In this document: in pieces, positions 2,354 through 22,437 of the stretch
Numbering within the stretch: the stretch's first letter is position 1
Layout of the letters: each line of letters starts with the position of its first letter
From: Folioceros fuciformis
Taxonomy: Eukaryota
Reading direction: 5' to 3'
Assembly (NCBI GenBank): GCA_049999805.1
Contig: JBNGIO010006445.1
Span: 1 to 38,593, forward strand
DNA: 38,593 nucleotides
The notes under the pieces: model-generated
What the model was told of the DNA's origin: nothing
The model's input: only the letters and a program-made list of their open reading frames with translations
Database searches by the model: none
Program-made: the position numbers and the translations under genes

Positions 2354-4098
2354 ATGTGCTATGCGTCATTTATGTCCAATCCAGCGTTCAAAGGGAGTAT
2401 AAGTAAAGAGTGGTTTCACTGGTAATCTATTGTGAACATAATTAACTGCAGCAACTGATTTTGCCCAATACCCACGGGTAAGTGATGCAGCTGATAAATT
2501 AGCTTTGCAGCATTCTTGTAAAGTGCGATTATATCGCTTAGCATATGAATTGTGTGCAGGGTGATATGGTATGGTCAATTGGTGGATCACTCCCTTCTGC
2601 CTGCAATATGCCTGTAAATCGTGGCTAAGGTACTCCTGTGCATTGTCACTTCTGAGTTTCTTCAACTTACAGCCTGTTTGAGTCTCAGCCATATGCACAT
2701 AGTCTAAAAATTTCTCATAAACTTGAGATCTGTGATGCAGAAAGTAGAGATGGCAAAAATGGCTCAATTCATCTAAAAACAATAGGAAATAAAATGCCCC
2801 ACCAAAAGACGTTGTAGACATTGGGCCACATATATTACTGTGTACCACATCCAACAGTCCGAGAGCCTTGGTTGGTTCAGGGTCATTATAAGGCTTTTGT
2901 GCCATCTTCCGAATCTGACAATCCTCGCAGAACAGGTATTCCTGAACTTTAAAGGTGATAGGATCCTTGTACAACTCTAGTTTATTAACAACTTGACGTA
3001 TATAACTTGTGCTTGGATGGCAAAGACGGTTGTGCCAGAGGAATGTATGGTCGACATCAACTTTTGCATCAGTGATGAGGTTGTATGCATAATTAGCCGT
3101 AACGTCGAATTGATACAAGTCATTGTAAGTTACTCCTTCACCAAGGATCGCTGAAGGATTGTTAACATAAGTGACTATACAGCTTATAGGAGTAAAACAT
3201 ACTCGCAGATCATGGTCCATAAACAGCTTTCTTACTGACAATAAGTTTTTCTTCATGCTAGGCACATGCAGAACACCAAGTAATGTGATATGTTTCCCTC
3301 CTTTCATGGGAAAAACAACATCACCATAGCCAACAATGGCCAATCCACTATCGTCCCCGAGGAGCACAAACTGACTGGTTGGTGCTAATTTATAAGTGGA
3401 GAATTTGTCTTGGGATACACAGATGTGATTTGTCACCCCTGAATCCAAAAACCACATGTTAATGTCGGCTTGAGTGAGGGAAAGACATACCGCTAGAATA
3501 GTTGGCGGTTTGTGTGCTGCTTGTGTAGGACTATTCTGTCCTTTTGTCACCACATGTGTTTCAGCGCCTGGTGGTGCCTCTCGGCGTGGCTCTCTAGCCC
3601 GCTTCTTCCGGCACTCATTCTCGAAATGTCCAGGAAGGCTGCAATCTTGGCACGAAGAGCTCAAAATTTGTGTAGGTAAGTTTCAACAATGTCCCTCTCC
3701 TTCATATGAAGGTTGTAGAGTTGTCTAGTCGCGTTGATAAGCGACATTCCATCTTTTGCTGCGAACATGTCCTTAAACAACTGCCATATGCTTGCAGAGG
3801 TGGTCTGCCCTTGTGTGTGTTGTATCATGTTTTTATCGAGAGCATAAATAATTAAGCAGCGTGCTCTCTTATCAAGCTTCAGCCAAGCCTGGATTTCAGC
3901 ATATGTTCCTTTAGGGGTTAACAGTGCTGGATTTGTAGCTGTACCAGTCCCAACGTCAAGGAGATCATATTCTTCTAAGATGGCCTCCATACGACGCTCC
4001 CAAATTGGGTAATCTATCCCGTTGAATCTGTCTTTATCTTTAATGTCAATTTTAATTGTATTAAATAGAGTTGTGCTGGTGGGATTGCTAGTTCCCAT
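2354..4098 (-). pseudogene. Copia gag-pol relic (gag, Zn knuckle, protease, GAG-pre-integrase, integrase)
   Basis: KDRFNG..WERRM gag; CxxxGHxxxEC knuckle; WFLDSG protease; LWHNRLCH; integrase with D->N (VHSNICGP) and E->K (NSYAKR); stops at 3661 and 2366; about 120 gag codons deleted near 3645. Confidence 0.9.
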
Positions 4099-4147
4099 GA
4101 ATAAGGTTTTGGGAGGAGTGAAAAAAGGGCAAGGTGTTCTTGGATAC

Positions 4148-4708
4148 CTATGTGGAGGTGACCACATACAGCTGTTGATAGGTGCTGTAGGAACCTACTG
4201 TATCAAAAAAAAAGAGAGTGGAGGAGTCAAAGTCCTGACCAAACATCTTTGCTAAAGACCCTAAAATTTGCTCAATTGGTTCAGGTACTATCATCAAAAC
4301 GAAGGATGGATCACAATGGGAAACATCACAACTCGAGATCCTCGAATTGGATTTAAAACCCGAAGAGAGTGAGAAATCTGTGAATTGCTCTATTAGCAAA
4401 GTGGCTTGTGACAATTTCTTGTGCAAAACACCTATTTGTTTCTGTAATTGCATGTGGTTCCTTTTGTAGATTTGTTGTGTGACACGTGCTTGGTCTTTAA
4501 GTATCGCCACTGAAGATATCAAGTGCTTAATTGCTATGTGGTCCTGGGGACAGGTGAGATGTTGCAGGGGCAAAGGACGACGAAGGAAAGGCGGATCTAC
4601 TACATGCTGGGCATAGCAAATATTACAAAAAAAACAGGGCTGATGTTGAGAAAGTAGGTCTTGATCTCCACTGAATTTATTTCCATTTCGATTCCTATTC
4701 CGTGTCAT
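4148..4708 (-). CDS. ORF0: extra ORF between PBS and gag (Arg-rich start, FxCxxC...HxxCPxDHI, coiled coil)
   Basis: 186-aa ORF in the element's sense orientation; motif shared with 13147-13467 and more weakly with 21312-21905. Confidence 0.55.
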   Translation of the reverse strand: MTRNRNRNGNKFSGDQDLLSQHQPCFFCNICYAQHVVDPPFLRRPLPLQHLTCPQDHIAIKHLISSVAILKDQARVTQQIYKRNHMQLQKQIGVLHKKLSQATLLIEQFTDFSLSSGFKSNSRISSCDVSHCDPSFVLMIVPEPIEQILGSLAKMFGQDFDSSTLFFFDTVGSYSTYQQLYVVTST

Positions 4709-4827
4709 GGTGCCGATCCACTTATCGTTTGTGCCTTTGACTGCACTCCCATCTGCTTAGGGCCTACCAATATTGTTTGAGCAGATCAAGATAAAGTCTC
4801 TTCTCCTCCTCCTGCCAGGGAAAACTA

Positions 4828-4954
4828 GAGGGTGGTACTGTCCACACTAGACGGAGGGTGGTACTGTCCACACTAGACGGAGGGTGGTACTGTCCACACT
4901 GGGCGGAGGGTGGTACTGTCCACACTGGGCGGAGGGTGGTACTGTCCACACTGG
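4828..4954. repeat. 26-bp tandem repeat, ~5 copies, in the Copia-1 5' UTR
   Basis: gagggtggtactgtccacact(a/g)g(a/g)cg starting at 4828, 4854, 4880, 4906 and 4932. Confidence 0.95.
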
Positions 4955-4984
4955 AACATGCTGCAACATCCTTCATGCTGCAAA

Positions 4985-4996
4985 GCTCTGATACCG
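4985..4996 (-). other. PBS, tRNA-iMet type (CGGTATCAGAGC; one mismatch)
   Basis: Matches TGGTATCAGAGC at 11/12. Confidence 0.85.
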
Positions 4997-4999
4997 TTT

Positions 5000-5223
5000 T
5001 GTATCTATGCCATCGCTTACCCATACTACTAGCAGCACTTGAACAAAGAACACACACATGCGCATATCGTAGAATTGTAGAATAGAATTTTTGGGTTCAG
5101 GAAAAAAACATATAAACAAAAGGTGGGAGTGTATAACCGTTTTTCTAACCTAATTCCTAATTAAATGATATTTAATTAATAGTTACGAGTTAGTGTCTGA
5201 AAATTGAAAACACTACTCCAATA
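5000..5223 (-). repeat. Putative 5' LTR of Copia-1 (~224 bp)
   Basis: Follows the PBS; distal end tactccaata matches the tattctaata end of the Copia-2 LTRs at 8/10; no second copy in the window, so boundaries are approximate. Confidence 0.55.
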
Positions 5224-6331
5224 ACCATCTTGCAGTCCTCTACAATAGTAAGTCATATCCTGGCCCTCCTCCTCTAGATTTTCCACACCAAAACTTCACG
5301 CTCACTTGTGGCTCAACAAGAACTTGCCCAACTAGAAGTGCTCGAGCAAGGGGTTCTCCTCTACTTTAGTGTCCAGGGAACCCATGGTTGTCCAATGGAA
5401 GCATGTGCTCGAGCTGGCCTTGCTCCGCAATAAAGCCATTCTATGCTTCCAAGCAGCGGTTGGAAACTCTCCTCTCTTCGTGTCCATTTTTTTTGCCTGT
5501 TTGCAGGACTGGATGGTCGCAAAGCATGGCAGGACTTTGTGTCGCTTTGTTATAACCTCATTCTTGTAACTGCTTTGTTTGTTGACGAAGGTGAAGTTTG
5601 GGCTTCCGCATCTAGCACCGAGTAGATTGTGTGAGTCGGGCATGAAATCAAAATAACCTGTAAGATTATAGGCGTGCGAAACAACATCATCAGGTAGCTG
5701 CATCGAACAAGATGCCCGTGGCACAAACTCATCGGAGGCTGAGCCACCCCAAGCAAGATACTGACCGACTTGTGGCGCTGACAGCAAAGCTTTTAGCATC
5801 AGTTTCCCTGGATCATCTTGGAGTACACTTGGATCTGCCTCTCATTTCCTACTGGAACTCTTGTCATTGATGATGCTCGGAGGAGAAGACTAGAGTGTCG
5901 TGAATGAGGAGCCCGTCCGAAAGTTGTTGGACCGCAAGGACGGGGGTGGGTAGCTTTTCCCCCTGGAGTGGGGCGCCCAATGCAACGCTTCCTGTGGTGG
6001 GTCTCACTTTACCATGGGCTGATTCGCGTGCGATCTCGTGTCCGACCTTCCACCTCCTTCAATTCCGGACAAGAGCAACAAAATTTGAAGAAGCACCCGG
6101 GCCCCAATGCATGTTGGCTGTAGGTCGCGAACGTATGTAATAAGAGTTTGGCAAGTATCTTGAGCAAAGTTCCCGCAAAACGCACCCGAATCGCGACTCG
6201 CTCATCTGCTGCTCACCAGCTGAACTCCATCGTCAATTTCCTGCTTCGCACTGGCTGTGCGAAATTTGAAAACACATGTCATGTTGCGCCTGAGATACAG
6301 GCCTGCTGGTCTCTCCGGAGCTGCGGACGCC

Positions 6332-6376
6332 CTGTTTCTGACGCCCTAGGGAGAGACCCTAGGGCGTCAGAAACAG
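6332..6376. repeat. Perfect 20-bp inverted repeat with 5-nt loop
   Basis: ctgtttctgacgccctaggg-agaga-ccctagggcgtcagaaacag. Confidence 0.95.
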
Positions 6377-6678
6377 ATGGAAAGCGATCTACAGCTGTCG
6401 CGCGCTAGGCTCTTGGCCGTTGGGCGTCGGAAAAAGATGCAAAGGGGGCTAAAGCTGCAACTCGCTTTCCATCTTCATCGGATTCCCCTTTCCCCATCCC
6501 CTCCGTACCTCCCTGTCCGACCGTTCGCACACAAGAAGGGACCTGACAGAGGGTTTCGGGTTCAACCTCGCAACCCGATCCCGGTCATGGGAGGAGCCCT
6601 TCAAATGCCCGCCCAAGCAGGCCCCACGCAACAACGCCCTCTCTCGAACTTGGCCTTCTGCAGTGCACGAAATCGAAA

Positions 6679-7188
6679 ATGGCCGGGTACAAGCAGCTCG
6701 CCGCAGCCCTGTTCATGCTGGCAGCGCTAGCCTGCGTGGCCGAAGCCAGCAGCTGGAGGCACACCGGATCCGACGGCATCACCATCCTGTCCTTTGTGGA
6801 GACAGCTGCCCAGGCGGACCGAGAGGTGTTCCTCCCTAATCCCATCCCCGGCAAGACCGACCCGAAGTTCGGCCAAGGCGGGGTGTACAACGCCGGCGTA
6901 CTCGTCAGGGGCAAGGAGGTGGGCCGCTCCACCGGCTTCTACTGATACGACTCCGTCTCTGGCGGCGTCCTCCAGTACGTCTTCACCCTCACCTTCACCA
7001 AAGGCTTCTACAAGGGCAGCTCCCTCACCCTCGGCGGCCGCCTCGTCTCCAGCATATCCATGGACGAGTTCCCCGTCACAGGCGGCACCGGCGTCTTCAA
7101 ATTCGTCACAGGATCGGCCATGTATACCACTCTCCCGACTGGCGCCTACGATGTCGTGGTCACCCTCAAAGGTGTCCTCCCCGGCTGA
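6679..7188 (+). pseudogene. Secreted dirigent-like (dirigent/allene-oxide-cyclase fold) protein, 169 codons, with one in-frame TGA at 6943-6945
   Basis: Signal-peptide-like N-terminus; VGRSTGFY, KGSSLTL and EFPVTGGTGVFKFVTG motifs; frame continues past the TGA to the stop at 7186-7188; high GC3; intronless. Confidence 0.75.
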
Positions 7189-7520
7189 AGCATTGGCAGT
7201 GAAGCTCGCTGAAAGCAGAGGATCACGCTCCTTTCTCAAAGTCTGTGGCCCACCCACAACCTTGTCTCATTTGTTTCACGCTCCACCACTTGTTGTTGCT
7301 AAAGGCAACGTGATATCCAGGGTAGGACAGTCACAGTGTGATCATTTTTGGGTAGGATAGTCACTGGACAACCGAATCACATGGTTGATGAGAGGTCAAT
7401 GCGGACTAATTTTGCTACTTAACACCTTACTCCTAGCTACTTCTCATGCTTCCCTTAAAGGATCCATCTAGGTGTGAATCTAGTATACTTAATCCTAGAA
7501 TTCTTATAAACTTGTGTTTC

Positions 7521-7560
7521 TTAGGTCTACACAAAATGTATTAGGTCTACACAAAATGTA
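7521..7560. repeat. 20-bp direct tandem duplication
   Basis: ttaggtctacacaaaatgta x2. Confidence 0.95.
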
Positions 7561-7826
7561 CAACTCTAGGAACATAAGGTAGAGTAGAATTGGGCTCTCT
7601 TTTGTGTTGAGATCTCCTTCCAAAGTCATTATCTCTTATCTTCACTACAAGCATATGAGTGATGCAAGCCCAAACTTCATGTCATATTCTAAATAACAAA
7701 TGCAACACCAACATCACCACCACTAATCTCCTAGTCCGTCCAAGAACCACTTTGTTCAACACAACAAAGAATTAAATTATATAATTTAGTACATCTGGAA
7801 GATAACAAAATGAGAGGGATACACGT

Positions 7827-8417
7827 TTATTGGTGGATAATAACATCCACAAGATGTGGATCTAGGGACACTAATACTTTACCTATGTCAAGGCTCAACC
7901 TATCTAAGGGACAGGTCATGGAAGAAGTGAACCATTCATCAATACACCCACGATGGAAAGTATGACAACATTCAGGAAGTCTTCTAACTTCTTGTCCCTC
8001 GTCCAATGAATTAAGACATATAGAACATTCTTCATTACTCTCCCCAACTTTCTTATAAAAAGTGAATCGAATAGTTTGCTCCAACTTTATCACATCTAGT
8101 TGCTCTTGTCCGCGTTGTGCTTGATGAACCCGCTGACCGGGTACTTCCCTATGCCTGTTAGTTATTCGCAATTGCCTTGGTTGTGTGTGATCGATTGGCT
8201 GACCAAATACATCTCTTGGCCTATTAAGTATCTCCCTCTCATTAACATGGTGTAATGATACGAGTCTCTCTTGACATCTATGCTTTAACCATTTCATGAA
8301 ACCTAACATAAAACCAATGATTACCATAAGGCACATACATGCAGCCAATTCGGGTAATCCAAATAATCTAGGGCCGTCATAATATTCAGTGATGTATTGG
8401 CCAAGTGTTGAAGACAT
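7827..8417 (-). CDS. ATL-like transmembrane RING-H2 E3 ubiquitin ligase (196 aa)
   Basis: N-terminal hydrophobic helix; CSICL...CCHTFHRGCIDEWF...TCPLD; ATG context ttacaATG shared with the paralog; intronless. Confidence 0.85.
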   Translation of the reverse strand: MSSTLGQYITEYYDGPRLFGLPELAACMCLMVIIGFMLGFMKWLKHRCQERLVSLHHVNEREILNRPRDVFGQPIDHTQPRQLRITNRHREVPGQRVHQAQRGQEQLDVIKLEQTIRFTFYKKVGESNEECSICLNSLDEGQEVRRLPECCHTFHRGCIDEWFTSSMTCPLDRLSLDIGKVLVSLDPHLVDVIIHQ

Positions 8418-9272
8418 TGTAATTTGAAAAAACAAGTGTACAGTCTCTGAAACCAAAAACCAATGTATCCTTGATTCTCCTAAAGTTGAAAAGAGTACTG
8501 ACTACAAAGTAGTAGATAGCAAACAAAGAGGTTATCAATGTGTTTGTTTCGAAATATCTATATCATGGATATCATGTATTGCATACATGTATAGATTGCT
8601 AGAAATTGTTTTCGAGACTTTTATTTACCAAACATTATCCTTAACTAGAAAGACCCTTTGCAATATGAGCTACTACCTAATGCAAACCTCGAGTGATCAG
8701 AGCCAAATTTATAAAGACTTGTGGCTGTACATGCATATATAGACCCTTGGAAGAATTGGATGATACTTGGACCACGAAGATTGTAAGAATATCATGATTC
8801 AGTAATTTAAAAAATTTACAATATTTTATAATTAAAATAAAGATAGATAGATTAAAATTGAGTGGTAACACACCATGAATCAAGGGATACAACTGACAAA
8901 CAAGTTAGTTTATCAACTTTGGATTTACGCTCACAAACAAAGACTTTATTGATAAACAAGATCCAACAGTCATCTGCCTCAAGAAAGAGGAAAACAAAAT
9001 TGTAAAAGCAACCAGGCGGGAAAGAACTGGTCCCAAAGGCTATAATTTGTATTCAAGCTATTTTTAAACTATTTTAACATAAAAATTAAATAGTGCTAGC
9101 ACTAACTTGTCTCTAAACAATCCAATCTACAACAAGTGACCATGAAGATTCATTTAAAAAACAAGATGAAAAAGTGGACCTCATTCGGATGCTAAACCCT
9201 ATTACGACAACAACAACATTGACTTTCTTGTTCCATTTTAAGAAGATTTTCAGACCCCAACAAAAGGATTAA

Positions 9273-9306
<34 letters not shown>
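9273..9306. repeat. (ATT)11 microsatellite
   Basis: Direct reading; lies in the 3' flank of the second RING gene. Confidence 0.95.
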
Positions 9307-9307
<1 letters not shown>

Positions 9308-9341
9308 ATTTTAAAAAATAATGCACATGAGGTATATATAG

Positions 9342-9794
9342 TTATGATTGGACAATAATTTCCAATGGAGCAGAACCTATGTTAGGACGTGACCTATCTA
9401 AGGGACAGGTCATTGAAGAAGAGAACCATTTATCAATACACGAACGATGGAAAGTATGACAACAGTCTTTAAGTTTTCTTACATCTTGTCCTTCCTCCAA
9501 CAGATCAAGACATATAGAACATTCTTCATCAGTTTCCACATCCTTCTTGTACAAGGTAAATGGAATATTTTCCTCCAATTTTGCCATGTCTAGTTCCTCT
9601 TCCTTAGGTCCAATGTTATACAAAAATTGACCACGTATTTCCCTTTGCCTATTAATGGGCTCATCATCGTGTGAACCAAACAATATGTGAAATATCCATC
9701 TGATAACTATCATGCAACATAGTAAAACATATATGAATAATATAACACAACTAAATACTACTAGTGGATGCAATCCAAATAAACTAATTGCCAT
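9342..9794 (-). CDS. ATL-like transmembrane RING-H2 E3 ubiquitin ligase (150 aa), tandem paralog
   Basis: TM helix; CSICL...CCHTFHRSCIDKWF...TCPLD; similar to 7827-8417 in the CDS and flanks. Confidence 0.85.
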   Translation of the reverse strand: MAISLFGLHPLVVFSCVILFIYVLLCCMIVIRWIFHILFGSHDDEPINRQREIRGQFLYNIGPKEEELDMAKLEENIPFTLYKKDVETDEECSICLDLLEEGQDVRKLKDCCHTFHRSCIDKWFSSSMTCPLDRSRPNIGSAPLEIIVQS

Positions 9795-10789
9795 TGTAAT
9801 ATGAAAATGAAAATAAAATTAATGTATCCTTCGTTTCATGAAATTGTTAAAGCTGATTAGCAGATGTTGTAGATAACCTAAGAAGATATCAGTGTAATTC
9901 CTTCATAGTATTCCTGTCATGGATGTGATAGAGTACTTGTGTGAATGGAGTTTAGGTTTTGACCGCTAGAAATTTTTGTCAAGACTTTTTATTTACCATG
10001 AATGTCCATATTTAAAGAGATGGAGTGCTTTGTTATACAATAGAATAAATAATTTTCTTTTAATATGGTTATGAACAAACAAGGTAAATATAACTTCAAG
10101 CCAAGAAGTCCTATTTTAGGCTCTGACAATTTATGCTCTCAAAGCACTCAATGATGTATAAAGCTAGAGTATACCTCACTTATGTTGAGGATTAGGCTCC
10201 CACACGTTATACTCTCAAAGTATTCAATGATGGTATGGAGCTAGACTAGACCCTCTTTTATACTAAGGTGGATGTTACTTTTGAAGTACCTACCTAAGTA
10301 AACTTTCCAAACTCTAACTCAAGTCTTGCAACCACTCACATAAAACTTTCCAATTTCATCCATGGGTATATGCCTCTTTTGGCAACTTCCCAACTAGAAC
10401 CATACTTAGAGGCCTTTGATGCAAGGCTCCTCATTTTAGTATGTCTCTCATACTCATGTGCCTACTAATTTGGTAGTTAAGTTATACTATAATATTTTAA
10501 CGTATAAATAAAAAATGTAAGTACTTAATGCTAAGGAAGTTATTAATTAACAAATTCTATGGAAGCCTTTCTCCTTTCCAGTGTGTGCACTATGTATTTG
10601 TGTGCACTATATATCAAGTGCATAGTCTTATAAATGCACTAGATAAGAAGCATAGTTTCAACCTTGTTCCTAATTATTGATGGGTAATGCCATCAATCAA
10701 GTAAGAATGAGTTCATAATACTTACCATTTTGCTTCATTGCAATTATTAGGTAACTCTTGCTAAGGTATTCTAGATTGTGGGCATTAGT

Positions 10790-10939
10790 CCTAACTAGTG
10801 ATACCTAACTAGCACCTAACTAGTGATACCTAGCTAGCACCTAACTAGTCATACCTAACTAGCACCTAACTAGTCATACCTAGCTAGCACCTAACTAGTC
10901 ATACCTAGCTAGCACCCAACTAGTGATCCCTAGCTACCA
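10790..10939. repeat. 25-bp tandem repeat, 6 copies (14+11 substructure)
   Basis: cctaactagt(g/c)ataccta(a/g)ctagca with a 25-bp period. Confidence 0.95.
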
Positions 10940-11342
10940 CCATCAAGGAGAATTCCAAGTAATGAATATAATGTTAATGAGGTGACAGAGGGAGGATATG
11001 CTAAAACGAGTTCATGTGAGCTACTTGAGCATGACAAGACAAATTATTCCGAGTCCTAGCATAGGTCTATAGAAATTGTCTTGTAATCAAAATGTATGCA
11101 ATTTGAGACATTACCTGTGATCTATTTTTTGGTGGGCATGTTTGAGTTATTAATCATTGTTAGCCGTACTCATTTTTTCACTTAACATAGCTCTAAATAC
11201 AACAAATCACCTCTTAGACCAATTGTCGAGCAAAGTTGTGGGTGAGGTTGAAATCTAGAATTACGTTATAGAAATAAATAACCTTTGCCCTAGCCTCCCC
11301 GACAGCTCAAATTTCTTAAATGGGTTTGCACACCCTAACCGA

Positions 11343-11393
11343 GTGTTTACTATTGCGAAAATGGGCAAGCTTTATTTTCGCAATAGTAAACAC
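11343..11393. repeat. Perfect 20-bp inverted repeat with 11-nt loop
   Basis: gtgtttactattgcgaaaat / attttcgcaatagtaaacac. Confidence 0.95.
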
Positions 11394-12244
11394 ATGGTTT
11401 GGTGCCTTTTTCAGGCTTGTTTGCCTAATGTAGACCGCTGGGATGGCTTGTTAGTAGCGGTGGGGGAGGATGATTGTAGATTATGCAGCAATGGGGCCTC
11501 TCACAAAAGCCAACGAGAATGAGTGTAGATTATGCAGCAATGGGGCCTCTCACAAAAGCCAACAAGGATGAGTGTAGATTATGCAACAATGGGGCCTCTC
11601 ACAAAAGCCAACGAGGATGAATGTAGATTATGCAACAATGGGGCCTCTCACAAAAGCCAACGAGGATGAGTGTAGATTATGCAGCGATGGGGCCTCTTAC
11701 AAAAGCCAACATATGTACTTCCACTGTAAGTTTGCCCACAAGGTTTGGTGAGAGGTGGAGAGTTGGCTGCAAGGGCTCTTTCCTCTGGCCAGCCCGGTTC
11801 TGACTGAACAATCTACCCTCTTTGGGCTAGATCAAACTTCTAGTAACCCACTGGTGTCGAATCAATGGTGGGCTTTGGTGTGGAGCTCTTGCATTTTCTG
11901 CCTCTACAGTAGCTGGACAACAGTTGTATACAGCAGCAGGGCCTCACTATCTACCAAGGCTGTAATGTGGCGTATCTAGGAATAGGTGCTAACTGCGGTG
12001 GAAAATCTCCAAGCTTCCTCTCCTCGCAAATTCAAGAGGAAGGATTGGGTTATGGCTGGCTTTCTACAGCCGGGTCGGGACAATTCATGGATCCACAAAA
12101 GCCATTAGTAGGATGATCGGTCCTCCTGTCAAGCCTTTGTTTTCTATGTGTTGTGGCTATCAAAAGACCATAGGCTCAATATGTGTACTCTCTAAGAAGT
12201 ATTCCACCTGTTTTATCTTACTCTTTTTTCACAAGGAAAAAAAA
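11394..12244 (+). mobile_element. LINE (L1-like) 3' fragment with C-terminal CCHC zinc finger and short A tail
   Basis: VWCLFQACLPNVDR...CRLC-x9-HMYFHCKFAHKVW (zf-RVT-like); homologous to 35104-35816; A run at 12237-12244. Confidence 0.75.
11466..11710. repeat. 49-bp tandem repeat, 5 copies, inside the LINE zinc-finger region
   Basis: gaggatgagtgtagattatgcagcaatggggcctctcacaaaagccaac with a 49-bp period. Confidence 0.95.
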
Positions 12245-13146
12245 CATTTTCCTATGATGGTAAAAAGTAATTAATTAAAGTGAAATATGAAAAGGTAACA
12301 TAAATATACAAACCACCATCCTCTCTCTCACTCAACATGACCTTCTATACCTATGCCAATGGGCTCAAAAGTGTGGCACCAAAGCATGCTTACACCCATG
12401 GGTTTAAAACTCTACTCCCACCTTGCTACTACGAGAACTTAATCATTGAAACAATCAATCAAGTACTTTTATTCATGTCCACGAAGGGGAAACCATTATG
12501 AAACAAAAATTGTACACCCTATAAAGAATACGATTGCATTATACACATATAATATTTTTGCATTGTACACATATATACCTTTAAACAAAAAAAAATATAT
12601 CAGACAGATTGAAACTCTATAATTTGGGTGAAAGGTAAGGCCTAAGGATAAAGAAAAAAAATATAAATAATCCAGCTAAGATTGTCAATAATCTCGAGGA
12701 GGTCTAAAATGAAGCCATTAGTTAGTCTTCACAAACCATGCTACTTTAGAATATAAACTTATGTAAAAGCTTTATATATACAGTTTTTTAAATTTGACAG
12801 AAAGAAGAAAAAAATGGAGGAGCCAGGCATCTACATGCTAGCGCACTGAGTAACCAGGAAATTTGGTAATCGTGGTTGATGGGACCCTTGATCCTGCCGC
12901 CCTTCAGGAGAAGATAATTCCTAAAGGCCTTCTACATCGATCCTGACTCCGTCCGATTCTCCTCGTGGAAACTCACGGGTCGGAGTGACTATTCTAGCAG
13001 CGTTGAGGTCTAAATCATCATCATCATCATCAGGCACGGGTTGCATCCCTGCAGACTTTGTCTTAGATGCAACAATGCGAGGTTGAAGGTGAAGATGACG
13101 CCTTTCTCATCCGTCCTGACTCAAGCGCTTTGTGGATGACACAAGT

Positions 13147-13467
13147 CTAATGAAGCTGTTGGATCATCTCACTGAGGCCATCAAACAGATCCTGGAGGCG
13201 ATTCACCTTGGTGTGCAACTCTTCGAGTTCGCTGTTGCAATGTGAGGGTGATCTTGCCGAAACTGAACACCGAGGATTGTTGAGAGGTTTGCACGAAACG
13301 CTTTCAATGTGCTCTGTTGGGCAAGGGTGTGAGGACGGTTGTGAGCAGATCTGAGCTTCTGCTTCACGGCAGTCCTGGCAAATGAATTCATGGTGAATCC
13401 TGGGAACTGGAATTCGTTTGTTTGCTCCTCTGCCCGTAGACTCCATCACAACATGGCATCTCGGCAT
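13147..13467 (-). CDS. ORF0-like protein (FICQDC...HPCPTEHI plus coiled coil), 106 aa
   Basis: Starts ~70 nt after the PBS; motif aligns by eye with 4148-4708. Confidence 0.5.
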   Translation of the reverse strand: MPRCHVVMESTGRGANKRIPVPRIHHEFICQDCREAEAQICSQPSSHPCPTEHIESVSCKPLNNPRCSVSARSPSHCNSELEELHTKVNRLQDLFDGLSEMIQQLH

Positions 13468-13690
13468 TGTCTCCCTAATGACATCGGCACAATATCACTA
13501 AGGTGCCGATCATCATCTGCGGGGAAACATATTCAGAGCTCCGATACCATAATGTGGATTGTGATGGTGGGCATGAGCGACACATGGAGAGAACAAGAGC
13601 ACGCAGAGAAAAGCAAAAGAGTGACAATTATTGTGCATTGTTCAGAATACATGCTTTGTTCATGACGGTTACAGGAAGAGTAATTGATTA
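13147..13690 (-). mobile_element. 5' end of a tRNA-iMet-primed LTR element (partial 5' LTR 13553-13690, PBS 13538-13549, ORF0); no gag recognisable downstream
   Basis: TGGTATCGGAGC 3 nt after a CA end; followed by an ORF0 homolog; LTR cut at 13691 by another LTR. Confidence 0.7.
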
Positions 13691-14117
13691 TGTAGCCTAC
13701 ACTAAACTAAAGGGGTTTCAACAATCTGGCGTAGCCTCTTGGAAGTTAAAACCTTCCTCCTCTCAGTCCTACCCAGGTATAGAAATGATGTGTTGGGCCT
13801 TCCTCTGAAGGATCGCTAGAGGAGCATGATGAAGGAGAGGAGAGGAGGAGGCAAGGAGGAGAGGAGGAGGCAAGGAGGAGAGGAAAAAAAGAGAGGTCAC
13901 ACTCTCACAAAAGGTCTCAATATGCAAGGGAGCTCAAGGGGGTATTTATACCATCTAGAAGAGCTCCCTAGGAAGCTTCACAAGAAGCGCACAGGAAGCT
14001 ATGCAAGAAGCTTCCTACATATTAGCTTAAGCTAATCTAAACTAATGATACTTAACTAGACACTAATCTTGAACTAAACACATTAGTCTAAGCACATTGG
14101 GCTTTAATAACCCTACA
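13691..14117 (-). repeat. 3' LTR of Copia-3 (427 bp), with TATA box at 13943-13950
   Basis: tgtag/ctaca terminal repeats; adjacent PPT; TATAAATA on the minus strand. Confidence 0.85.
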
Positions 14118-14159
14118 ACCTCCCCCTTAAAGGCCAATTTACCTTCATAGGAGAGTGGT

Positions 14160-14629
14160 CTACCTCATGCCCATGAGTGTCTGAGCTTGTGCGAATTGCT
14201 CCGAAGAGAGCCCCTTGGTAAGAACATTTGCAGGGTTCTGACTGGTGTGAACTTTGACAAGTTGTACCCTCTTGTCTTCCAACACCTCTCGAATGAAGCG
14301 ATACTTCACTTCCATATGTTTGGTCTTCGCATGAAACATTGGATTCTTTGCCAATTGAATAGCACTCTGGCTATCACAATGCAACACTGGAAGCTCAACC
14401 TTGATCCTCAAATCTCCCACTAAACGAGCAAGCCACATGGCTTCCTTGCACGCCTCAGTTGCTGCAACATACTCGGCCTCTGTGGTAGATAGCGTTATGC
14501 ACGATTGCAAACGAGATCGCCATGAGACTGCCCCTCCTGTGCACATGAAGACATAACCTGATGTGGACCTCCTTTTGTCCATACCCTCTGCATAATCAGC
14601 GTCCGTATATCCCACGACAGATGCATCTT
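14160..14629 (-). pseudogene. Copia RNase H domain fragment
   Basis: GYTDADYA..RRSTSGY..LSTTEAEY..CDSQSA..HAKTKH..NVLTKGL; homology ends abruptly at 14630. Confidence 0.92.
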
Positions 14630-16145
14630 TGTAGAGGAAAAAAACTTTCGACACTCCCATTTTGAGTGATAGGATGAGCAGGCTGCAATTTTTTGTATGA
14701 AGGAATGAGCAAATTGGCTTAGTATGTGAATAAAATGGGGTATTCATCCCCAAAAATGGCCTTGGTCTTTGGGTGTTTGGGATACCGAAGACCACGATCT
14801 AGAAGTGAGTGAGTGAGGGTGCCCTTGAGCCTTGGTGGTTCGGGGGCCTTTAGGAGATTATATATATCTCCCCCTTTTGGAAATAAGGAATAGAAATGAG
14901 TAGGGAAGAGGGTTAGCTAGTTGTGGATTTAGGAAAAAGGATGGGTTGAGGTGACTGGGCGACGGTGGCCAGTGGGGCAACCGTCGCGAAAAGGACAACA
15001 ATTGGTAGTCTAACTAGCAGTAGTGAGAGAAGAAAATGGCCAGTATAAAAACCCTAAAGGGAAGTATGGAAGGGAATTAAGTTAGTCTTCGAAAAGTAAA
15101 GGGCAGTAACTCGGGAGCGTGAAGGCGGCTGGAAGGGAAGCAGATGCTGAGGCAACAGGACGGGCCGAGGCAAGCAGCGAGTGCTCAGCGAGAGAGAGAA
15201 GGGAATGCAGAAGCCGGAGCATGAGGAGGAGATTGGCAGGATGAGGTCAGGTCCTGAACTGCTGCCTGGAGTACCAGAGTAGGAGGGGGAACCTCTTGTC
15301 CCCCGGATCGACCTACTGTTGTGGCCCAACATGGAGCATTGGAGGGTCAGAGCAGGAGGGTTGGTGGATGAATTGGGTTTGGGTTTCATGACCCAGAAGT
15401 GGAACCACGCGGCGCCACAGTTGGTCAGGGAGTGCGCCCTAAGGTTGAGGGAACTTGTCCGAGAGAAAGGGATCAGAGGTAGACCGCAAGGGTGGAATCT
15501 AGAGCTAGTAAGGAGGGTGTATGGCCGTGACCAGCGAGAAGAGGGAGGACTGGTGCTGGAGTCCTTGAGGAAACAGGGGGGTACAGGAGACGCTGAAGGA
15601 CTGCTCAAACCAGGCATGAAGAAGGAGGCTAACGGATGGTTGGTTCGCGACATGGCGAGCCCGCAGCTGATGGGTCTGGCCAGGTAGTTTCTTAGCTTTC
15701 TCCAGGTTCGCAAATAGGATTATCTATCATAGATGCTCCTGTTTGTGCATAAGGTAGTGAAGGGGACCAGGATTGATTGGGGAAAATTTCTGTATGCCAG
15801 GATGGACGAGGAGAGGCAGAATTTGACCCTGTCCTCTCCTCAGCCCTCGATGATTTCCCCGTTTCTAGTGCATATTTATAGTTATGTTAACCTGGTGTCC
15901 GAACTGGAGGTGTTGGCTTCACTGCACATGTGGAGGCCAATCAAGGATGTAAAATGGAAGCCTGCTGAGCCAGTGAAGGCTGACTCCAGCAGTTGGGAGT
16001 CGGGGAGTGGGGACAGCTCGGAGGGGAAGGTCCCTGTCAGGCCTAAGAAGAGGACAACGGCTCAGGGGAAGACCCTTGACAAGAGGAGATGGGTCAGCGG
16101 GCAGAGCACGAGAGGAGGGAGTATGCCGAAGACACCGGAGACAGC
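14630..16145 (-). mobile_element. 3' end of a probable Ty3/Gypsy element (LTR ~14630-14862, PPT 14867-14878, antisense extra ORF) inserted in the Copia-3 RNase H
   Basis: TG terminus exactly at the RNase H break; AAAAGGGGGAGA tract on the minus strand; decayed coding region on the opposite strand. Confidence 0.6.
15319..16145 (+). pseudogene. Degenerate retrotransposon accessory (antisense) ORF
   Basis: In-frame ORFs 15319-15687 and 15733 onward, separated by TAG stops; RIDWGKFLY...MISPFLVHIY resembles accessory ORFs of plant Gypsy elements (by recall, not searched). Confidence 0.5.
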
Positions 16146-16545
16146 TGTGGGGTTAAAATATGGTACCCAGGGGTACCGCGAGGTCCACACAAGCCCTCTA
16201 TGTCGTTGTAGCTCTGGGATTCGATCCCAAGGGAATGATTTGTGTTAAACTACATAGGTTAGCTTCTAAAGTCAATTAGCACTTTAAGCTCGACTGACCC
16301 ATGCACACACGTCCAGTGCTCGGACCTTGCCAAGCCCCCTTACTTCCCCACCGGACGACCCCTCAACCACCCGGTCGCCCCAACGGCTACCTTCCCCTAG
16401 ACTACCTGTGGAGGCAAAACCCCGGGCACTGATTGCCGACGGGTTCCACCTTTAGTGGCCACACTTATCCCACTGTCGTTGAGACATTGGGTTTCGTTCC
16501 CACGAAGGAGCGATGGGGTTCCTTGCTGCTGTGGATGGAGGGTCG
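16146..16545 (-). repeat. Athila-like LTR, U5-side 400 bp, interrupted by Copia-2
   Basis: tgtgg terminus; ccacac...tcgttgtag...gattcg..cccaa block shared with 1076-1170 and with the reverse complement of 27940-28042. Confidence 0.75.
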
Positions 16546-16809
16546 TGAAAAACAGGCTAGATCGTCATGCGTAGGCAGGTAGATCAGACAAGAAGAACAA
16601 GAAAGAATTAATTGTATTGCACGCGCGTCCACCTAAAAGGTTAGGGACGGCGGCGGTTGGCCGTGTCCGTTCGTATGGACACGGCGGTTGGTCTTAGGGC
16701 ACGACCGTTAGTCGTGCCCCTTAAAATGGGTTACGTCTTATGACGTTTCGCTACTTAACCTATTTAATTATCTCTATGCTTTGACTATTAATACATACGT
16801 ATTCTAATA
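16546..16809 (-). repeat. 3' LTR of Copia-2 (264 bp, TA...CA)
   Basis: Identical to the 5' LTR outside one rearranged block; abuts the PPT. Confidence 0.95.
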
Positions 16810-17117
16810 CTCCCACTTAGGCATAGCATAGATAATCTACGCCTCACAGCCACGACGTGTCATGTGATTGCTGTCTTTACGTCCACTCCTTTGACGAGGA
16901 CGGCAAGCTGATTCTGAGATATGGTAAGTGAAACTTGCGCCAGCTTGCTCCCACTGCAGAGAATTTCGCTTGCAACTGACCAAGTGATGCCGGTTTGTGT
17001 TGCCACAGAGCCGTGGTACATGTGCTCCACTTCCAGACCTCAGCGACAGTTCAAAGGATGGACGCAGACAGGTTTAGGTTGTCTGGCTGCGAATTCCTAG
17101 TGAGTGCAGAGATAACT

Positions 17118-20100
17118 CTAGGTTTCTGGCATGTTTGTGAGGCCCATGGCCCTACAGAATTTATCATGCTTCTCTTTTGACAAGGCTTTAGTAAGGACAT
17201 CTGGTCTTTGTTTGTACAGAAGCCCAAGGGTTGGAGTCCCTTTGAGATATCTCATAATTCTCTAGACTGCTGCCCAATGAGGACTTCCGTAATTAGAGAG
17301 AAACTGCGAAACAGCTCCCACTGCCTGAGATAACTCAGGCCTCGTCCAATTCCTAAAATATATAAGTGAGCCAACTGCAGATTTATAAGGTACGGCTTCC
17401 ATCTTTTGCCTTTCCTCCTCGTTCTTAGGGCACTGATCAAGGGTCAGTTTCTCACCCACAGCTTGTGATGTTGCTGCAGGCTTGCAGTCCAGCATTCTGA
17501 ATCTCATCAATATCTGCCGAATGAATTGACTCTGATGAATGAAGACTGTATGCGTGGACAGATTCTGGATAATTTGTACTCCCAAGAAGTATGTGAGCTG
17601 GCCCACATCAGTCATATTGAACTCAGAGGTCAGGATACCCTTAACCTTGTTCATAAGCATAGGGTTACTTGCAATAATTACGGCATCATCCACATACAGG
17701 GCAAGGTACGCAACACCATTGTTATCATACATTCTGTATACGTTGCTATCTGAGTCACTTTGGATGAATCCACAGTCTTTGAGGAATTTGTCTATTCTCT
17801 TAAACCAAGCCCTAGGAGACTGCTTCAATCCGTATATGGTCTTGATAAGCTTACATACCTTGGTTGGGTGATCTGGGTCCGCAAAACCTTCAGGCTGTTG
17901 CATATAGATTGTTTCCTCCAAGATTCCATTAAGGAATGCTGTTTTGACATCCATGTGATGCATTTTGTAATCATGTTGGGCAGCTATGGCCATCAACGCT
18001 CTAACTGAGGTGGCACGAACCACAGGTGAGAACGTCTCTGTATAGTCCAAGCCTTCAACCTGACTATATCCGCGGGCAACAAGGCGGGCTTTATACCTTG
18101 CAATGGTTCCGTCTTGTGCCAACTTTTTCTTGAATACCCACTTACACGTCACTGCCTTGCGGCCTGGAGGTAAGTCAACAAGTTCCCAGGTTTTGTTATC
18201 AACTAGTGACTGGTATTCTGATTGGATTGCTGCATGCCATTTTCCTGCCTCATGACCATGTATTGCTTCCTTGTATGACTGAGGTTCACTGAGATCTATG
18301 GGTTCTCCCTGATCATCTACAAGGAAGGAGTTGTAAGTCAATGGCGGTGTCTGCCACTCATCAGGTGAGGACGTATGCCTCCTACTACTCCTCCGTAATG
18401 GTGCCTCAGGCACATATACCTCAGTGTGAACTGGTACAGTATCTAACTGAACATGGTCCATGTGCTGATCACTGTCTGCAGGCACAACATCCCCATCCGC
18501 ATCCCCATCTGGACTTGCCAAATTCTGAGCAGGAGAAGTTCCACTTGACACCTCATCATCGGGGAAGTAGCTAAGTTCCTCAACTTCGGTGCTTTGTGAA
18601 TTACTCTGCTCATTTGATTGCGTAGGGATGACAGGGACTTGAGGTATGACTGACTGTCCATGAAGGTCAGCTGGCTGAGACACAGCATTATCATCCAGAG
18701 TCTGGTTATCCATATCAGAATCATGTGAATAACTACTGGATGCTTGAGTACTTAGAGGTGGTAGCTGAGGAGGCTCTAGCAACGGCAGTTCATTGAACAG
18801 TACACTCCTAGCATGCGTAGTGGTACGGGTTTCAGGATCATAGAGTTTGTACCCCTTGATGCCCTCAGTGTAACCGACGAAGATATACTGGCGAGCTTTA
18901 TAATCAAGCTTAACTCGTTGATCTTCTGACAGATGGGCATAGGCAGGAGCACCAAAAATCCGCAGATGATTAATTCTGGGCTTGTGTGATGTCCAGCGCT
19001 CGTAGGGAGTGGCACCAGTGAAAGCCTTGGTGGGGAGGCGATTCTTGATGTAGGTCGCCGTGGCAACAGCTTCTGCCCAATATCCCCTGGACAGGCGAGA
19101 AATCTTAAGCATAGATTTGGCTGCCTGCTGCAGATGCTTGTTGTTAAGTTCCGCTAAGGGATTCTGTGAAGACGTATAGGGCACTGTGAGCTGCCTGGCG
19201 ATGCCAAGAGAGCGGCAGTAAGCATCGAACTCAGCTGAACAGAATTCGCCTCCACCATCACTGCGTAAGGTCTTAACCAACTCCCCTGTTTGCCTCTGTG
19301 CAAAAATGACATACTCTTGGAAGCAGCCGAGAGTCTGATTCTTGTTTTTGATGAAATAGGTAATAGTATACCGGCTCCAATCATCAACAAAGGAGAGAAT
19401 ATACTTGGCGCCTCCAAGAGACGAAGTGGACATGGGTCCACACAAGTCAGAATGGACAACCTCCAAGAGCTTTGTAGCTCGGGTAGGGTTGGTGTCCTTG
19501 TAAGGTAAGCGCTGATGCTTGCCAAAGGCACATGCTTCACAGAACTGCTTATTCACAAACTGCAGCAGAAACTTTTCCCGATATAAGGTATTGTCGGAGA
19601 TCATCAACTTGATCTTATCGAAATTGGCATGACCCAATCGACAGTGCCATAACATGGACTGCTGATCCTTGAAGGCTGCCTGAATGGCTTGTACAGAAGG
19701 TGGCGGCAGTCCAAACTTTGAGGTAAAGTCCAAAGCATACAAGTCATTGACAGGCTTCCCAGTTGCTAGAGTCTTGGACTTGGAGTGAGGATCAGAAATA
19801 AAACAATCAAGGTCGATGAATGAGATTATCAACCCATGTTGTTTCTGGAAATTACTCACGGAAACCAGGTTCTTTACCATGGCAGGTACATGAAGAACAT
19901 CCATCAGATTGATGGTGCTCTTGTTTGTGAGTAATACAGGGACTGTCCCTACTCCAGCAATCTCCAGACCCCTCTCGTCACCTAGTAGCACTTGGTGTCC
20001 AGGCGGCATCTTAGTATAATGCAGAAAAGACTTCCGATTATGGCAAATATGTGCTGACGCACAGGAGTCAAGATACCAAACATCATTGACCTGCGTCGTG

Positions 20101-21305
20101 GCAGTCATACATACTGTAAGTATAGTGTTCTTGCGTTGAACCAGGTTGTTTTCTGCTGGAGGTGCAACCCTTCGAGGCTCATTGGCCTTCTTCTTCCTAC
20201 ACTCGGATTCAAAGTGGCCAGGAATAAGACACCAATTACACTTGCCCTTTTTCTTTGCAGAACCAACCCCTGGATACCTTCTGGCCCCTGAACTGTTGGT
20301 ATTGTTCCAAGAGGAACGTGATGGTGGCTTCCTAGAGCCTCTTTGAGAAAAGAGCACTCTGCTTGAAGCCTCTCCCCTGTGGGAGGTGCCACCACGGTTT
20401 GCATTTCGGGTTGCCTCTTCCTCGAGAAGGGCTCCGACTAGGTCAGATAGGTGAACTGCAGGTGCTTGTCCTGCTGGGGTTGCAAGCTGTATGTTACGGA
20501 GATTTGAGCTGTAGTTGCTCACAAACGTCCGATAGCTCTCAGGAAGTGTAAGTAATAAGGCGATTGCCGCCTGAATCTCTGTTATTGTAGTACCACTTGA
20601 TGTCAACTTTGAACGCAACGTTCTAAATCTACTCACATGAGCCTCGATTGTGTCAGACTCCTTCATCTTGCAGGTATAAAAGGACCTGGTAGAGGTCACC
20701 ATGGAGGTCCCATTGACAACCTGGTAAGCCTGAGTAAGTGCATCCCAAGCTTCTTTGGTTGTTTCCACATCTCGGGTATAATCAATCATTGTGCCATCTA
20801 GCGCAGCCTGGATAACTCCAAGTGCGCGAAGATCCTTTTTGTTCCAGGCGTCAATGTCGGCTTGTGCTGATCCAGTGGCTGGCTTCACCGATGCTCCAGA
20901 GACAACATCCCACAGGTCATGTTCTCTTAGAATGGTTTTAACCCTGAGTGCCCAGATGTCGAACTGGGTGCCCGAAAAACGGTCCTTCTCCTTGAAGTCG
21001 ATCTTCAGGTTATTCACAGTAGTATTATGAGTCACAGTGCCAGTAGCCATGGCTTGCACAACTCGAGTGGCTAACTGGAGTGCTAATCCTTGCTTAAAGG
21101 CCTGGACCTGTGCAGCAACTGAGGTGCTAGACTGTGCACTGGGGACAGGTCTTGTAGGTGAGGGAGTGCTAGACCGAGACGAGGAGGAACTGTCAATTGA
21201 CAGAGGATCAAATGTGTTACTCGAAACTAAATGCCCTCTTCGACCAGTGGGTCGACCTCTCCTAGATGAGTTCCTAGCACCCCTACCTCTTGAGTGCATC
21301 CGCAC
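17118..21305 (-). pseudogene. Copia gag-pol polyprotein; nonsense codon at 17262-17264 and RNase H core deleted
   Basis: CNWC..GH..EC; YLDSCAS; LWHCRLGH; VHSDLCGP/LRSDGGGE; YKARLVARG; LYVDD; after the TAG the frame reads RIMRYLKGT...LLYKQR|PDVLTKAL to the stop at 17118. Confidence 0.92.
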
Positions 21306-21311
21306 AGCAGA

Positions 21312-21905
21312 CTAGAAGTCTGGTGGAACATCAGATGTGGTATTGCACCCTGACATATCAAGCATATCCTTCATTGCATTTACTTGCCGTATTAATTCAA
21401 TGCCCTTCTCTGCTTGTGCAGCAGGTCTACTAACTGAAATGGACAAGAATGCAAGCTGTTGTGACAGCAAGGTTATGCTTCTACTATTGTCTTTCAATTT
21501 CTCACTGAGATCAGCAAAATGTCGTCTATTGATTTCGGCTTGACACTTTATGAACTGATGCACCTCTGCTAGAAGGTGATCGCTAGTGTTTGACACGTTC
21601 GAACTTGCTGTGCATCTATCACAAAGTGATCTAGTTGCAAACTGTCTTGCATGTTGTGCAACATTTGGATGCAAGTTTGTACGGTAGTCAGGATGGACAC
21701 TGATCTTGTGCCTATTTGCCTGACACCTAGTGAATGCAGATGACGACTGCTGATCCCTGTAATTTGAAGAAGACACAATGGGTTCAACAGTGTGCGACAG
21801 AAATTGATTTAAATTCTGATTCTGTGAATGCGCAAACTTACTATTATGGACAGCAAAGTGATCAAGATTCTGGTTTGATCTGCGTTGCCTACGGGCTCTC
21901 GGCAT
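21312..21905 (-). CDS. ORF0 of Copia-2 (197 aa; Arg-rich start, CDRC...SDHL, coiled coil), in frame with gag-pol across a single TAG
   Basis: Lies between the PBS and gag; junction reads TTC TAG TCT GCT GTG CGG ATG. Confidence 0.6.
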   Translation of the reverse strand: MPRARRQRRSNQNLDHFAVHNSKFAHSQNQNLNQFLSHTVEPIVSSSNYRDQQSSSAFTRCQANRHKISVHPDYRTNLHPNVAQHARQFATRSLCDRCTASSNVSNTSDHLLAEVHQFIKCQAEINRRHFADLSEKLKDNSRSITLLSQQLAFLSISVSRPAAQAEKGIELIRQVNAMKDMLDMSGCNTTSDVPPDF

Positions 21906-22092
21906 GATTACTTCCTAAGAAAAGTAGTGTTCTACAGTTTCTGCTAGAAACTTATCAGCCATGCTTCCGAATCTGACTAGCGCCAATTTGAGTGCAGAGA
22001 TAAGACTTCGAAAGACTTGGAAATCAAGACTCTTGATGCAATCCTCACTCTGGCAAATTGGACAGCGATTCTCAGACATGGCGTTATCCATG

Positions 22093-22104
22093 GCTCTGAT
22101 ACCA
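22093..22104 (-). other. PBS, tRNA-iMet type (TGGTATCAGAGC)
   Basis: Perfect match directly adjacent to the LTR. Confidence 0.95.
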
Positions 22105-22300
22105 TGAAAAACAGGCTAGATCGTCATGCGTAGGCAGGTAGATCAGACAAGAAGAACAAGAAAGAATTAATTGTATTGCACGCGCGTCCACCTAAAAGGT
22201 TAGGGACGGCGGCGGTTGGCCGTGTCCGTTCGTATGGACACGGCGGTTGGTCTTAGGGCACGACTAACGCTTTGACTATTAATACATACGTATTCTAATA
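22105..22300 (-). repeat. 5' LTR of Copia-2 (196 bp; 68 bp shorter than the 3' LTR)
   Basis: Direct repeat of 16546-16809 lacking 16711-16778. Confidence 0.95.
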
Positions 22301-22427: not shown

Positions 22428-22437
22428 NNNNNNNNNN

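Follow-up and report, generated by a model that had tools for sequence, protein, structure and literature searches.

Open reading frames (ORFs) additional to gag-pol, lying up- or downstream of it and in either orientation, have been described in long terminal repeat (LTR) retrotransposons (Vicient and Casacuberta, 2020, PMC7264820, in its sections on such ORFs). A survey of plant LTR retrotransposons sorted these extra ORFs (eORFs), in the sections devoted to them, into the classes eORF-5'F, -5'R, -3'F and -3'R and, with a minimum length of 250 codons, counted 582 Ty1/copia elements that carry them (Neumann et al., 2019, PMC6317226). According to the same sections, the Ty1/copia eORF proteins were highly heterogeneous, with 45 similarity groups and any CDD similarity in only 21.4%; fast evolution or independent acquisition was proposed as their origin, and their function was questioned by the authors. 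In the survey's main text on Copia lineages, the eORF-3'F of SIRE was the only feature named, and eORFs fused to the polyprotein in some copies had been discarded. For Sireviruses, a larger Gag was described in which a coiled coil is predicted to follow downstream of the CCHC knuckle (Bousios et al., 2010, PMC2829016, in a passage citing Havecker 2005). Beyond these three papers, nothing was found in the literature on a Copia-specific 5' ORF. Here we analyzed a 38,593-nucleotide (nt) stretch of Folioceros fuciformis DNA (contig JBNGIO010006445.1 of assembly GCA_049999805.1, positions 1 to 38,593), hereafter called the window. Two defective Copia copies in it, elements 1 and 3, carried real-looking, lineage-specific 5' ORFs, which we term ORF0-1 and ORF0-3; a third, ORF0-2 of element 2, was doubtful.

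The three ATG-to-stop ORFs, all on the minus strand, had been pointed out in a first-pass annotation, and their coordinates stood (Table 1). So did its statement that a primer-binding site (PBS) for the initiator methionine tRNA (tRNA-iMet) lies upstream of each ORF0 in the sense orientation. The 12-nt consensus used for matching was the one we take to be complementary to the tRNA-iMet 3' end. At no more than one mismatch, three such sites were present in the window compared to 0.25 expected, and three were reached in none of 100 shuffles. The Cys/His motifs quoted by the annotation were also found, FFCNIC..HLTCPQDHI in ORF0-1, FICQDC..HPCPTEHI in ORF0-2 and CDRC..SDHL in ORF0-3, and two of the ORFs began with Arg-rich tails as it had described (MTRNRNRN and MPRARRQRR). 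No tandem repeat detected by Tandem Repeats Finder (TRF) overlapped any of the three ORF0s.

ORF length was compared with 2000 dinucleotide shuffles of each leader and with real non-genic segments. The length of ORF0-3 was reached in 0 of 2000 shuffles and 0 of 530 real segments, and that of ORF0-1 in 0 of 2000 shuffles and 6 of 530 segments. For ORF0-2 the shuffle fraction was 0.062, and 29 of 554 real segments held an ORF at least as long. Codon usage was scored after training on coding frames from the window itself, and known coding chunks reached 0.02–0.18. ORF0-3 scored 0.065 per codon, its own frame being the best of the three, and this value was reached by 1.7% of 59 simulated chance ORFs; ORF0-2 scored −0.023, which 76% of the simulated ORFs reached. 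The open frames of ORF0-1 and ORF0-3 exceed chance expectation. The claim of an extra 5' ORF in three elements therefore held for elements 1 and 3 and is doubtful for element 2, whose ORF was chance-like and had no gag or pol downstream.

Element 3 is a Ty1/copia LTR retrotransposon, with LTRs in direct orientation, an iMet PBS, a Copia-type gag and the order protease-integrase-reverse transcriptase. The first-pass annotation had found no gag in this element, which was wrong: a gag-pol ORF of 1345 amino acids (aa) starts 12 nt after the ORF0-3 stop. Pfam identified DUF4219, Retrotran_gag_2, Pol_BBD, gag_pre-integrs, rve, SH3_retrovirus and RVT_2 in its product (DUF4219 and Retrotran_gag_2 at residues 108–300, Pol_BBD at 408–487, rve at 613–709 and RVT_2 at 1035–1277). 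Alignment with the gag of element 1 placed the canonical Gag start near Met84 (about 21050), and residues 1–83 formed an Arg/Ser-rich N-terminal extension before it. Besides the exactly repeated part, the two LTRs had a further 33-nt block upstream in common, and the 3' copy had an additional ~73 nt. Inspection by eye revealed no matching 4–5 bp flanks of a target-site duplication at the two candidate LTR starts; exactly where the 5' LTR begins is uncertain. An additional in-frame TAG was located inside a conserved pol motif. Similarity to the pol of element 4, which also lies in the window, stopped at element 4 residue 1186 (17214), and the element 4 block 1191–1303 (RNase H) was without a counterpart. 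With an in-frame TAG in pol and no intact RNase H, element 3 is defective; its identical 160-nt LTR parts and mostly absent RNase H mark a young yet non-autonomous copy. The word depth of its contig in run X1 was 22.8 compared to 5.6–7.6 for single-copy-like neighbours, which suggests a few near-identical copies.

Element 1 was 38% identical to element 3 in gag and 40% in protease-integrase, compared to only 27–32% identity with element 4. Elements 1 and 3 are thus closer to each other than to element 4, which makes them two families of one Ty1/copia lineage. In element 1 the counterpart of ~120 residues of the element 3 gag was absent, and the reading frame changed. A Ty3/gypsy-type gag fragment was present at 95–682 on the minus strand (Retrotrans_gag, E=2e-9), and a nested insertion there may be the cause of the truncation of element 1 at about 2354. 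The distance from the PBS to the canonical Gag start was about 0.9–1.0 kb in both element 1 and element 3, and ORF0, with its 186–197 codons, took up the greater part of it. When the leaders were compared by blastn and tblastx, they had nothing in common except the PBS. Two families only 38–40% identical in gag-pol thus both have a long sense ORF in the corresponding position, in leaders that cannot be aligned, from which we argue for selection on the open frame.

ORF0-1 and ORF0-3 resemble the eORF-5'F class in being forward, located between PBS and polyprotein, free of any conserved domain, mutually dissimilar and outside tandem repeats. They differ from it in size: the survey's minimum, as given in its sections on eORFs, was 250 codons (PMC6317226), whereas the ORF0s have 186, 106 and 197 codons. 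Ogre ORF1 and the 5' ORFs of Tat/Athila are likewise sense ORFs upstream of gag, but they belong to Ty3/gypsy elements and are much longer, some with a plant mobile domain or Athila ORF-1 (PMC6317226, PMC7264820); no Pfam match to Athila ORF-1, the plant mobile domain or Transposase_28 was obtained in the ORF0s. Sireviruses, compared by description only, are similar as a Ty1/copia lineage in which extra Gag-associated sequence is predicted to form a coiled coil, and differ in that this coiled coil is inside Gag, whereas ORF0 is an ORF of its own upstream of Gag (PMC2829016, passage on Gag). The ORF0s appear to fit the known heterogeneous class of 5' forward eORFs and not a conserved Cys/His domain family. 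The annotation's lineage-specific accessory protein survives as a lineage-specific extra ORF in elements 1 and 3; forward 5' ORFs as such were already a named class in the survey's sections on eORFs (PMC6317226). At present, the two ORF0s add a further case to the heterogeneous and poorly understood eORFs of plant LTR elements, and they point to a family worth genome-wide collection. Functional analogies for an upstream basic coiled-coil protein or for abutting cistrons are offered by the glyco-Gag of murine leukemia virus, LINE-1 ORF1p and the polycistronic translation of caulimoviruses, and their likeness to ORF0 is by analogy alone.

We tentatively favor, with a little less than even confidence, the reading that ORF0 is a separate, fast-evolving, element-specific forward cistron before gag, of the eORF-5'F class, with ORF0-2 possibly a chance ORF. 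Under this reading, full-length element RNA would be translated for ORF0 first and for gag after it. The ORF0 stop and the gag start codon adjoin, the stop preceding the ATG by 12 nt in element 3 and following it by 20 nt in element 1, so that ribosomes finishing ORF0 would be released at the Gag start. The N-terminal half of the product would be basic and probably disordered, its C-terminal half helical and amphipathic, and we infer a helper that may bind element RNA and/or self-associate. If ORF0 is constrained and translated, it would represent a 5' accessory cistron added to a Ty1/copia lineage, and one would have to ask how ribosomes come to translate Gag-Pol when an ORF of ~190 codons precedes it.

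The junctions can also be read as breaks, with ORF0 as the N-terminal part of a long Gag that was severed by nonsense in element 3 and by a frameshift in element 1, or that is joined to Gag by occasional TAG read-through; we regard this as unlikely. In element 3, a short upstream ORF (uORF) stops 9 nt before the ORF0-3 ATG, ORF0-3 ends in a single TAG in the same frame as the gag-pol ATG, and the translation with TAG written as X (X76) placed uORF, ORF0-3 and gag-pol in one frame. Read in this way, the frame ran on for 1700 codons, in which TAG occurred six times and TAA and TGA not at all. The other in-frame TAG in the conserved pol motif indicates that nonsense hits occur in this copy, its Gag is already 83 aa longer before the canonical start, and element 1 has further frame lesions. 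eORFs fused to the polyprotein are known in some copies, which the survey, in its sections on eORFs, removed (Neumann et al., PMC6317226). Random nonsense hits do not account well for the ATG found 3–4 codons after each stop, from uORF to ORF0 and from ORF0 to gag; by our own estimate each has a chance of about 0.08 unless these are real starts, and the arrangement fits separate cistrons better. LTRs identical over 160 nt also lead one to expect few mutations after insertion, and the contexts TAG TCT and TAG GAA fit no read-through motif known to us and are followed by no stable structure. TAG as a sense codon was considered and rejected: the window's other long frames, which run for 1370 codons in element 4 and for 1017 codons in an ankyrin ORF, contained 0 TAG, and in element 3 pol seems to be terminated by TAG at what is presumably the usual end point of Copia pol. 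Read-through or frameshift structures at the junctions were likewise rejected on fold z-scores of 0.02, 0.38 and −1.76. Separate abutting cistrons are moderately favored over a broken or read-through Gag extension.

Several observations weigh against a separate ORF0 cistron. The single frame of uORF, ORF0-3 and gag-pol is expected of a broken single ORF and has a 1/9 chance for independent cistrons. Both elements are defective, so the ORF0/gag junctions could be lesions. Eukaryotic ribosomes normally reinitiate poorly once they have translated a cistron as long as about 190 codons, and the junction RNA, with the z-scores given above, showed nothing unusual in its structure. ORF0-1 was only weakly coding-like, with a codon-usage score of 0.028 that 9.8% of the simulated chance ORFs reached, and its single-sequence AlphaFold2 (AF2) model was poor, with a predicted local distance difference test (pLDDT) score of 39.7 overall and of 50–66 for its predicted helix (residues 56–115). 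No ORF0 copies beyond the window could be aligned, leaving no ratio of non-synonymous to synonymous substitution, and run X4, which we guess to be RNA, gave no contig cover on the ORF0s, no RNA run being listed with the stretch.

Searches for relatives elsewhere bore out the annotation's view that ORF0-1 and ORF0-3 cannot be assigned to a named family. Pfam at E≤10 assigned no family to the ORF0s. A search of PDB sequences gave a best E-value of 0.21 for ORF0-3 and nothing for ORF0-1, and no homologue of ORF0-3 was obtained among 5.8 billion proteins of near and longer lengths. The search with ORF0-1 by HMMER against 1.84 billion representatives yielded two matches, both tandem-repeat proteins that scored through 5–6 repeated stretches and were judged spurious. 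In the ESM Atlas, the best scores (0.81 and 0.84, with recognition at about 1400) were uninformative. The homologue search with the gag region of element 3 gave one match, at 24% identity. Within the window, no ORF0 paralogues were found, and the ORF0s showed no similarity to the gag of elements 1, 3 and 4 (16 Smith-Waterman tests, lowest p=0.064).

A metagenome contig scan with ORF0-3 and a viral-contig scan with the gag-pol of element 3 gave no matches, while the metagenome scan with gag-pol recovered 80 related Copia loci. In tblastn against these 80 loci, no match to any ORF0, to the uORF or to the N-terminal extension of Gag had an E-value below 0.4. A credible iMet PBS upstream of the polyprotein was present in 0 of 80, the three matches at two mismatches being inside or beside ORFs, and the loci are therefore not of the element 1/3 lineage. 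In the 12 loci examined, gag began 5–36 residues before the point aligned with DUF4219 in six and the frame was broken in six; a sense ORF of at least 141 aa upstream of gag was present in 1 of 12.

Variation was examined in the contigs of two DNA runs that contain element 3, among the differences listed (2795 further ones lie beyond those). Two such differences fell in ORF0-3, both synonymous (21561 and 21741), a point for a separate ORF0 cistron that comes from very few sites; two in the gag-pol of element 3 changed E to D and H to D; and those in ORF0-2 comprised one synonymous, two non-synonymous and one stop-loss change. In run X1, the summed contig depth dropped from ~73 to ~24 upstream of about 21071, related copies aligning from approximately the canonical gag start onward, and one contig joined 20966 to 22086, its short side having only 20 letters. 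The depth drop and the joining contig indicate that the region before gag is much more variable than gag-pol.

This variability, the low AF2 confidence over most of ORF0-1 and ORF0-3, the mutual dissimilarity of the three ORF0s and the lack of a homologue of any of them in the Pfam, PDB, protein and metagenome searches would all suit a leader that acts as RNA, in packaging, dimerization or translational control by uORFs, with the open frames being chance or decaying remnants. ORF0-2, chance-like in length and codon usage and with a stop-loss among its listed variants, would suit it as well. We nevertheless consider it improbable that the leader acts only in this way, as ORF0-1 and ORF0-3 are longer than the ORFs in all 2000 shuffles, the codon usage of ORF0-3 is coding-like, and the ORF is at the same place in two diverged families.

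The first-pass annotation had further proposed that the three ORF0s form a shared accessory family with a conserved Cys/His motif, and this was not supported. BLASTP among the three gave best E-values of 0.43, 1.3 and 0.049, none significant, and Smith-Waterman comparison against 1000 shuffles gave p=0.37, 0.28 and 0.03 (uncorrected, seven tests). MAFFT did not bring the motifs into register. The annotation had named failure to align as a point against its own claim, and the ORF0s did not align, single sequences being compared and not profiles. A common metal-binding or coiled-coil family for the three ORF0s was not shown by these sequence comparisons.

That the ORF0s are very diverged members of one family, with a zinc-binding Cys/His motif and an oligomerizing coiled coil, is a distinctly unlikely reading, which draws on patterns that were defined post hoc, after sight of the sequences. 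The loose pattern C-x2-C-x(8-30)-H-x(3-5)-[HC] was found in 3 of 3 ORF0s compared to 16 of 371 other background ORFs (100–220 aa), several of the 16 being true integrase or RING zinc sites. The stricter C-x2-C-x(8-30)-[DE]-H-[IL] occurred in 3 of 3 compared to 1 of 371, and in 0.1–1% of shuffles. Counted from the N-terminus, the motif had almost the same position in ORF0-1 as in ORF0-2, and in the models of ORF0-1 and ORF0-3 the long predicted helix began at its His. ORF0-2 and ORF0-3 also had identical first nine bases, ATGCCGAGA, giving MPR (13459–13467 and 21897–21905, minus strand), a word with three sites in the window compared to 0.24 expected. Against a single family, ligand spacing and loop lengths varied from ORF0 to ORF0, the CP-x-[DE]-H-I block was absent from ORF0-3, and when the pair of collinear motif matches between ORF0-1 and ORF0-2 was assessed by hand with sum statistics, p was roughly 0.06–0.25. 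No Pfam zinc-finger family matched the three ORF0s or the uORF even at E≤10, and the Cys/His region had a pLDDT <50 in the AF2 models of ORF0-1 and ORF0-3. The Cys/His pattern is a lead and not a result.

For the helical segment that the annotation placed after the motif, helices were predicted by AF2 at low confidence in ORF0-1 and ORF0-3, and residues 78–105 of ORF0-2 had a clear 3–4 hydrophobic spacing, its heptad p-value being unreliable. In all three ORF0s, the loose, post hoc Cys/His pattern thus came before an amphipathic helix. In the single-sequence model of ORF0-3, the helical block had a pLDDT of 60–80 and the whole model 51.6. A crude heptad-contrast test against 500 shuffles gave p=0.04 for ORF0-1 and p=0.05 for ORF0-3, and homodimer prediction for residues 100–197 of ORF0-3 gave an uninformative score of 0.06.

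In a more elaborate arrangement, uORF, ORF0 and gag-pol would be expressed as a relay of successive cistrons in one frame, the uORF stop being followed after 9 nt by ORF0 and the ORF0 stop after 12 nt by gag-pol; ORF0 would then be a very rapidly evolving zinc-finger-plus-coiled-coil "pre-Gag" expressed through termination-reinitiation or TAG read-through. The uORF had a hydrophobic helix-like stretch after its CPICQSEDC. We think such a relay very unlikely; if it were true, both the accessory gene and the way of expressing it would be new for Copia elements.

In element 2, tblastn with either gag-pol found no gag or pol downstream of ORF0-2, with nothing between 4056 and 14292. Element 2, of which only a PBS-like site and ORF0-2 are present, is a gag-less fragment, and ORF0-2 may be a chance ORF. 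The element 2 PBS is preceded by an LTR-like stretch, and just upstream of that stretch, at 14627–14292 on the minus strand, there was an RNase H fragment with 46% identity to element 4; a single LTR may serve two tandem elements here.

Table 1. Coordinates of the features of elements 1, 2 and 3 in the window
Feature	Position	Strand	Remarks
Element 1 protease-integrase fragment	2366..3682	-	similarity ends at about 2354
Element 1 gag fragment, different frame	3661..4194	-	ATG at 4167, overlaps ORF0-1 end by 20 nt
ORF0-1, 186 aa	4148..4708	-	MTRNRNRN start, FFCNIC..HLTCPQDHI, predicted helix 56–115
26-nt tandem repeat, 4.9 copies	4828..4955	.	TRF; leader of element 1, PBS to ORF0-1; no overlap with ORF0-1
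Element 1 PBS-like site, CGGTATCAGAGC	4985..4996	-	1 mismatch
ORF0-2, 106 aa	13147..13467	-	FICQDC..HPCPTEHI, heptad-like C-terminus; indistinguishable from chance ORF
Element 2 PBS-like site, TGGTATCGGAGC	13538..13549	-	1 mismatch
Element 3 (whole)	16546..22264
Element 3 3' LTR, exactly repeated part	16546..16705	-	160 nt, direct orientation, 100% identical to 5' copy
Element 3 pol tail, in frame beyond internal TAG	17120..17261	-	TAG=X translation; most of RNase H missing
Element 3 gag-pol ORF, 1345 aa	17262..21299	-	Pfam domains; alignment to element 1 gag
ORF0-3, 197 aa	21312..21905	-	Arg-rich start, low-confidence N-terminal half, predicted helices 107–157, 163–184
uORF, 58 codons	21915..22091	-	contains CPICQSEDC; begins right after PBS (GCCATGG)
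Element 3 PBS, TGGTATCAGAGC	22093..22104	-	exact match
Element 3 5' LTR, exactly repeated 160-nt part	22105..22264	-	100% identical to 16546–16705; ends ...TTTTTCA, directly abutting the PBS TGGTATCAGAGC

At 13584–14831 and 16080–16703, the summed contig word depth was in the tens of thousands compared to about 8–10 elsewhere, indicating very high-copy repeats. Contigs of other copies of the repeat flanking element 3 diverged from the window at 16545 and ran on unlike it, which indicates that element 3 was inserted into a very high-copy repeat. Runs of N were present at 22428–22437, 26487–26586 and 26735–26744, the latter two masking part of the leader and the gag start of element 4 and hiding any 5' ORF there. 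Tandem repeats were located at 10790–10941 (25 nt), 11466–11710 (49 nt) and 33832–34099 (31 nt). In the window, Rfam gave 0 matches at the gathering threshold and the tRNA scan 0 genes. Over 3600–22300, run X3 showed 929 C>T and 895 G>A changes compared to 5–61 for each other change type, which suggests that its library was made from the same sample after bisulfite conversion.

Among the other ORFs of the window, two RING-H2 finger ORFs at 7827–8501 and 9342–9818, both on the minus strand, matched zf-RING_2 (E=6e-14 and 5e-14) and had a 227-nt repeat in common at 81% identity; they probably represent two host genes in tandem. The ankyrin-repeat protein, encoded in a long single frame at 29820–32873 on the minus strand, had a weak C-terminal PGG-domain match and a plant-type architecture. 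The region 5252–7734 was covered by contigs of run X4 at a depth of ~20 and contained plus-strand ORFs (e.g., 6731–7360) with no Pfam match; it may be an expressed unannotated gene.

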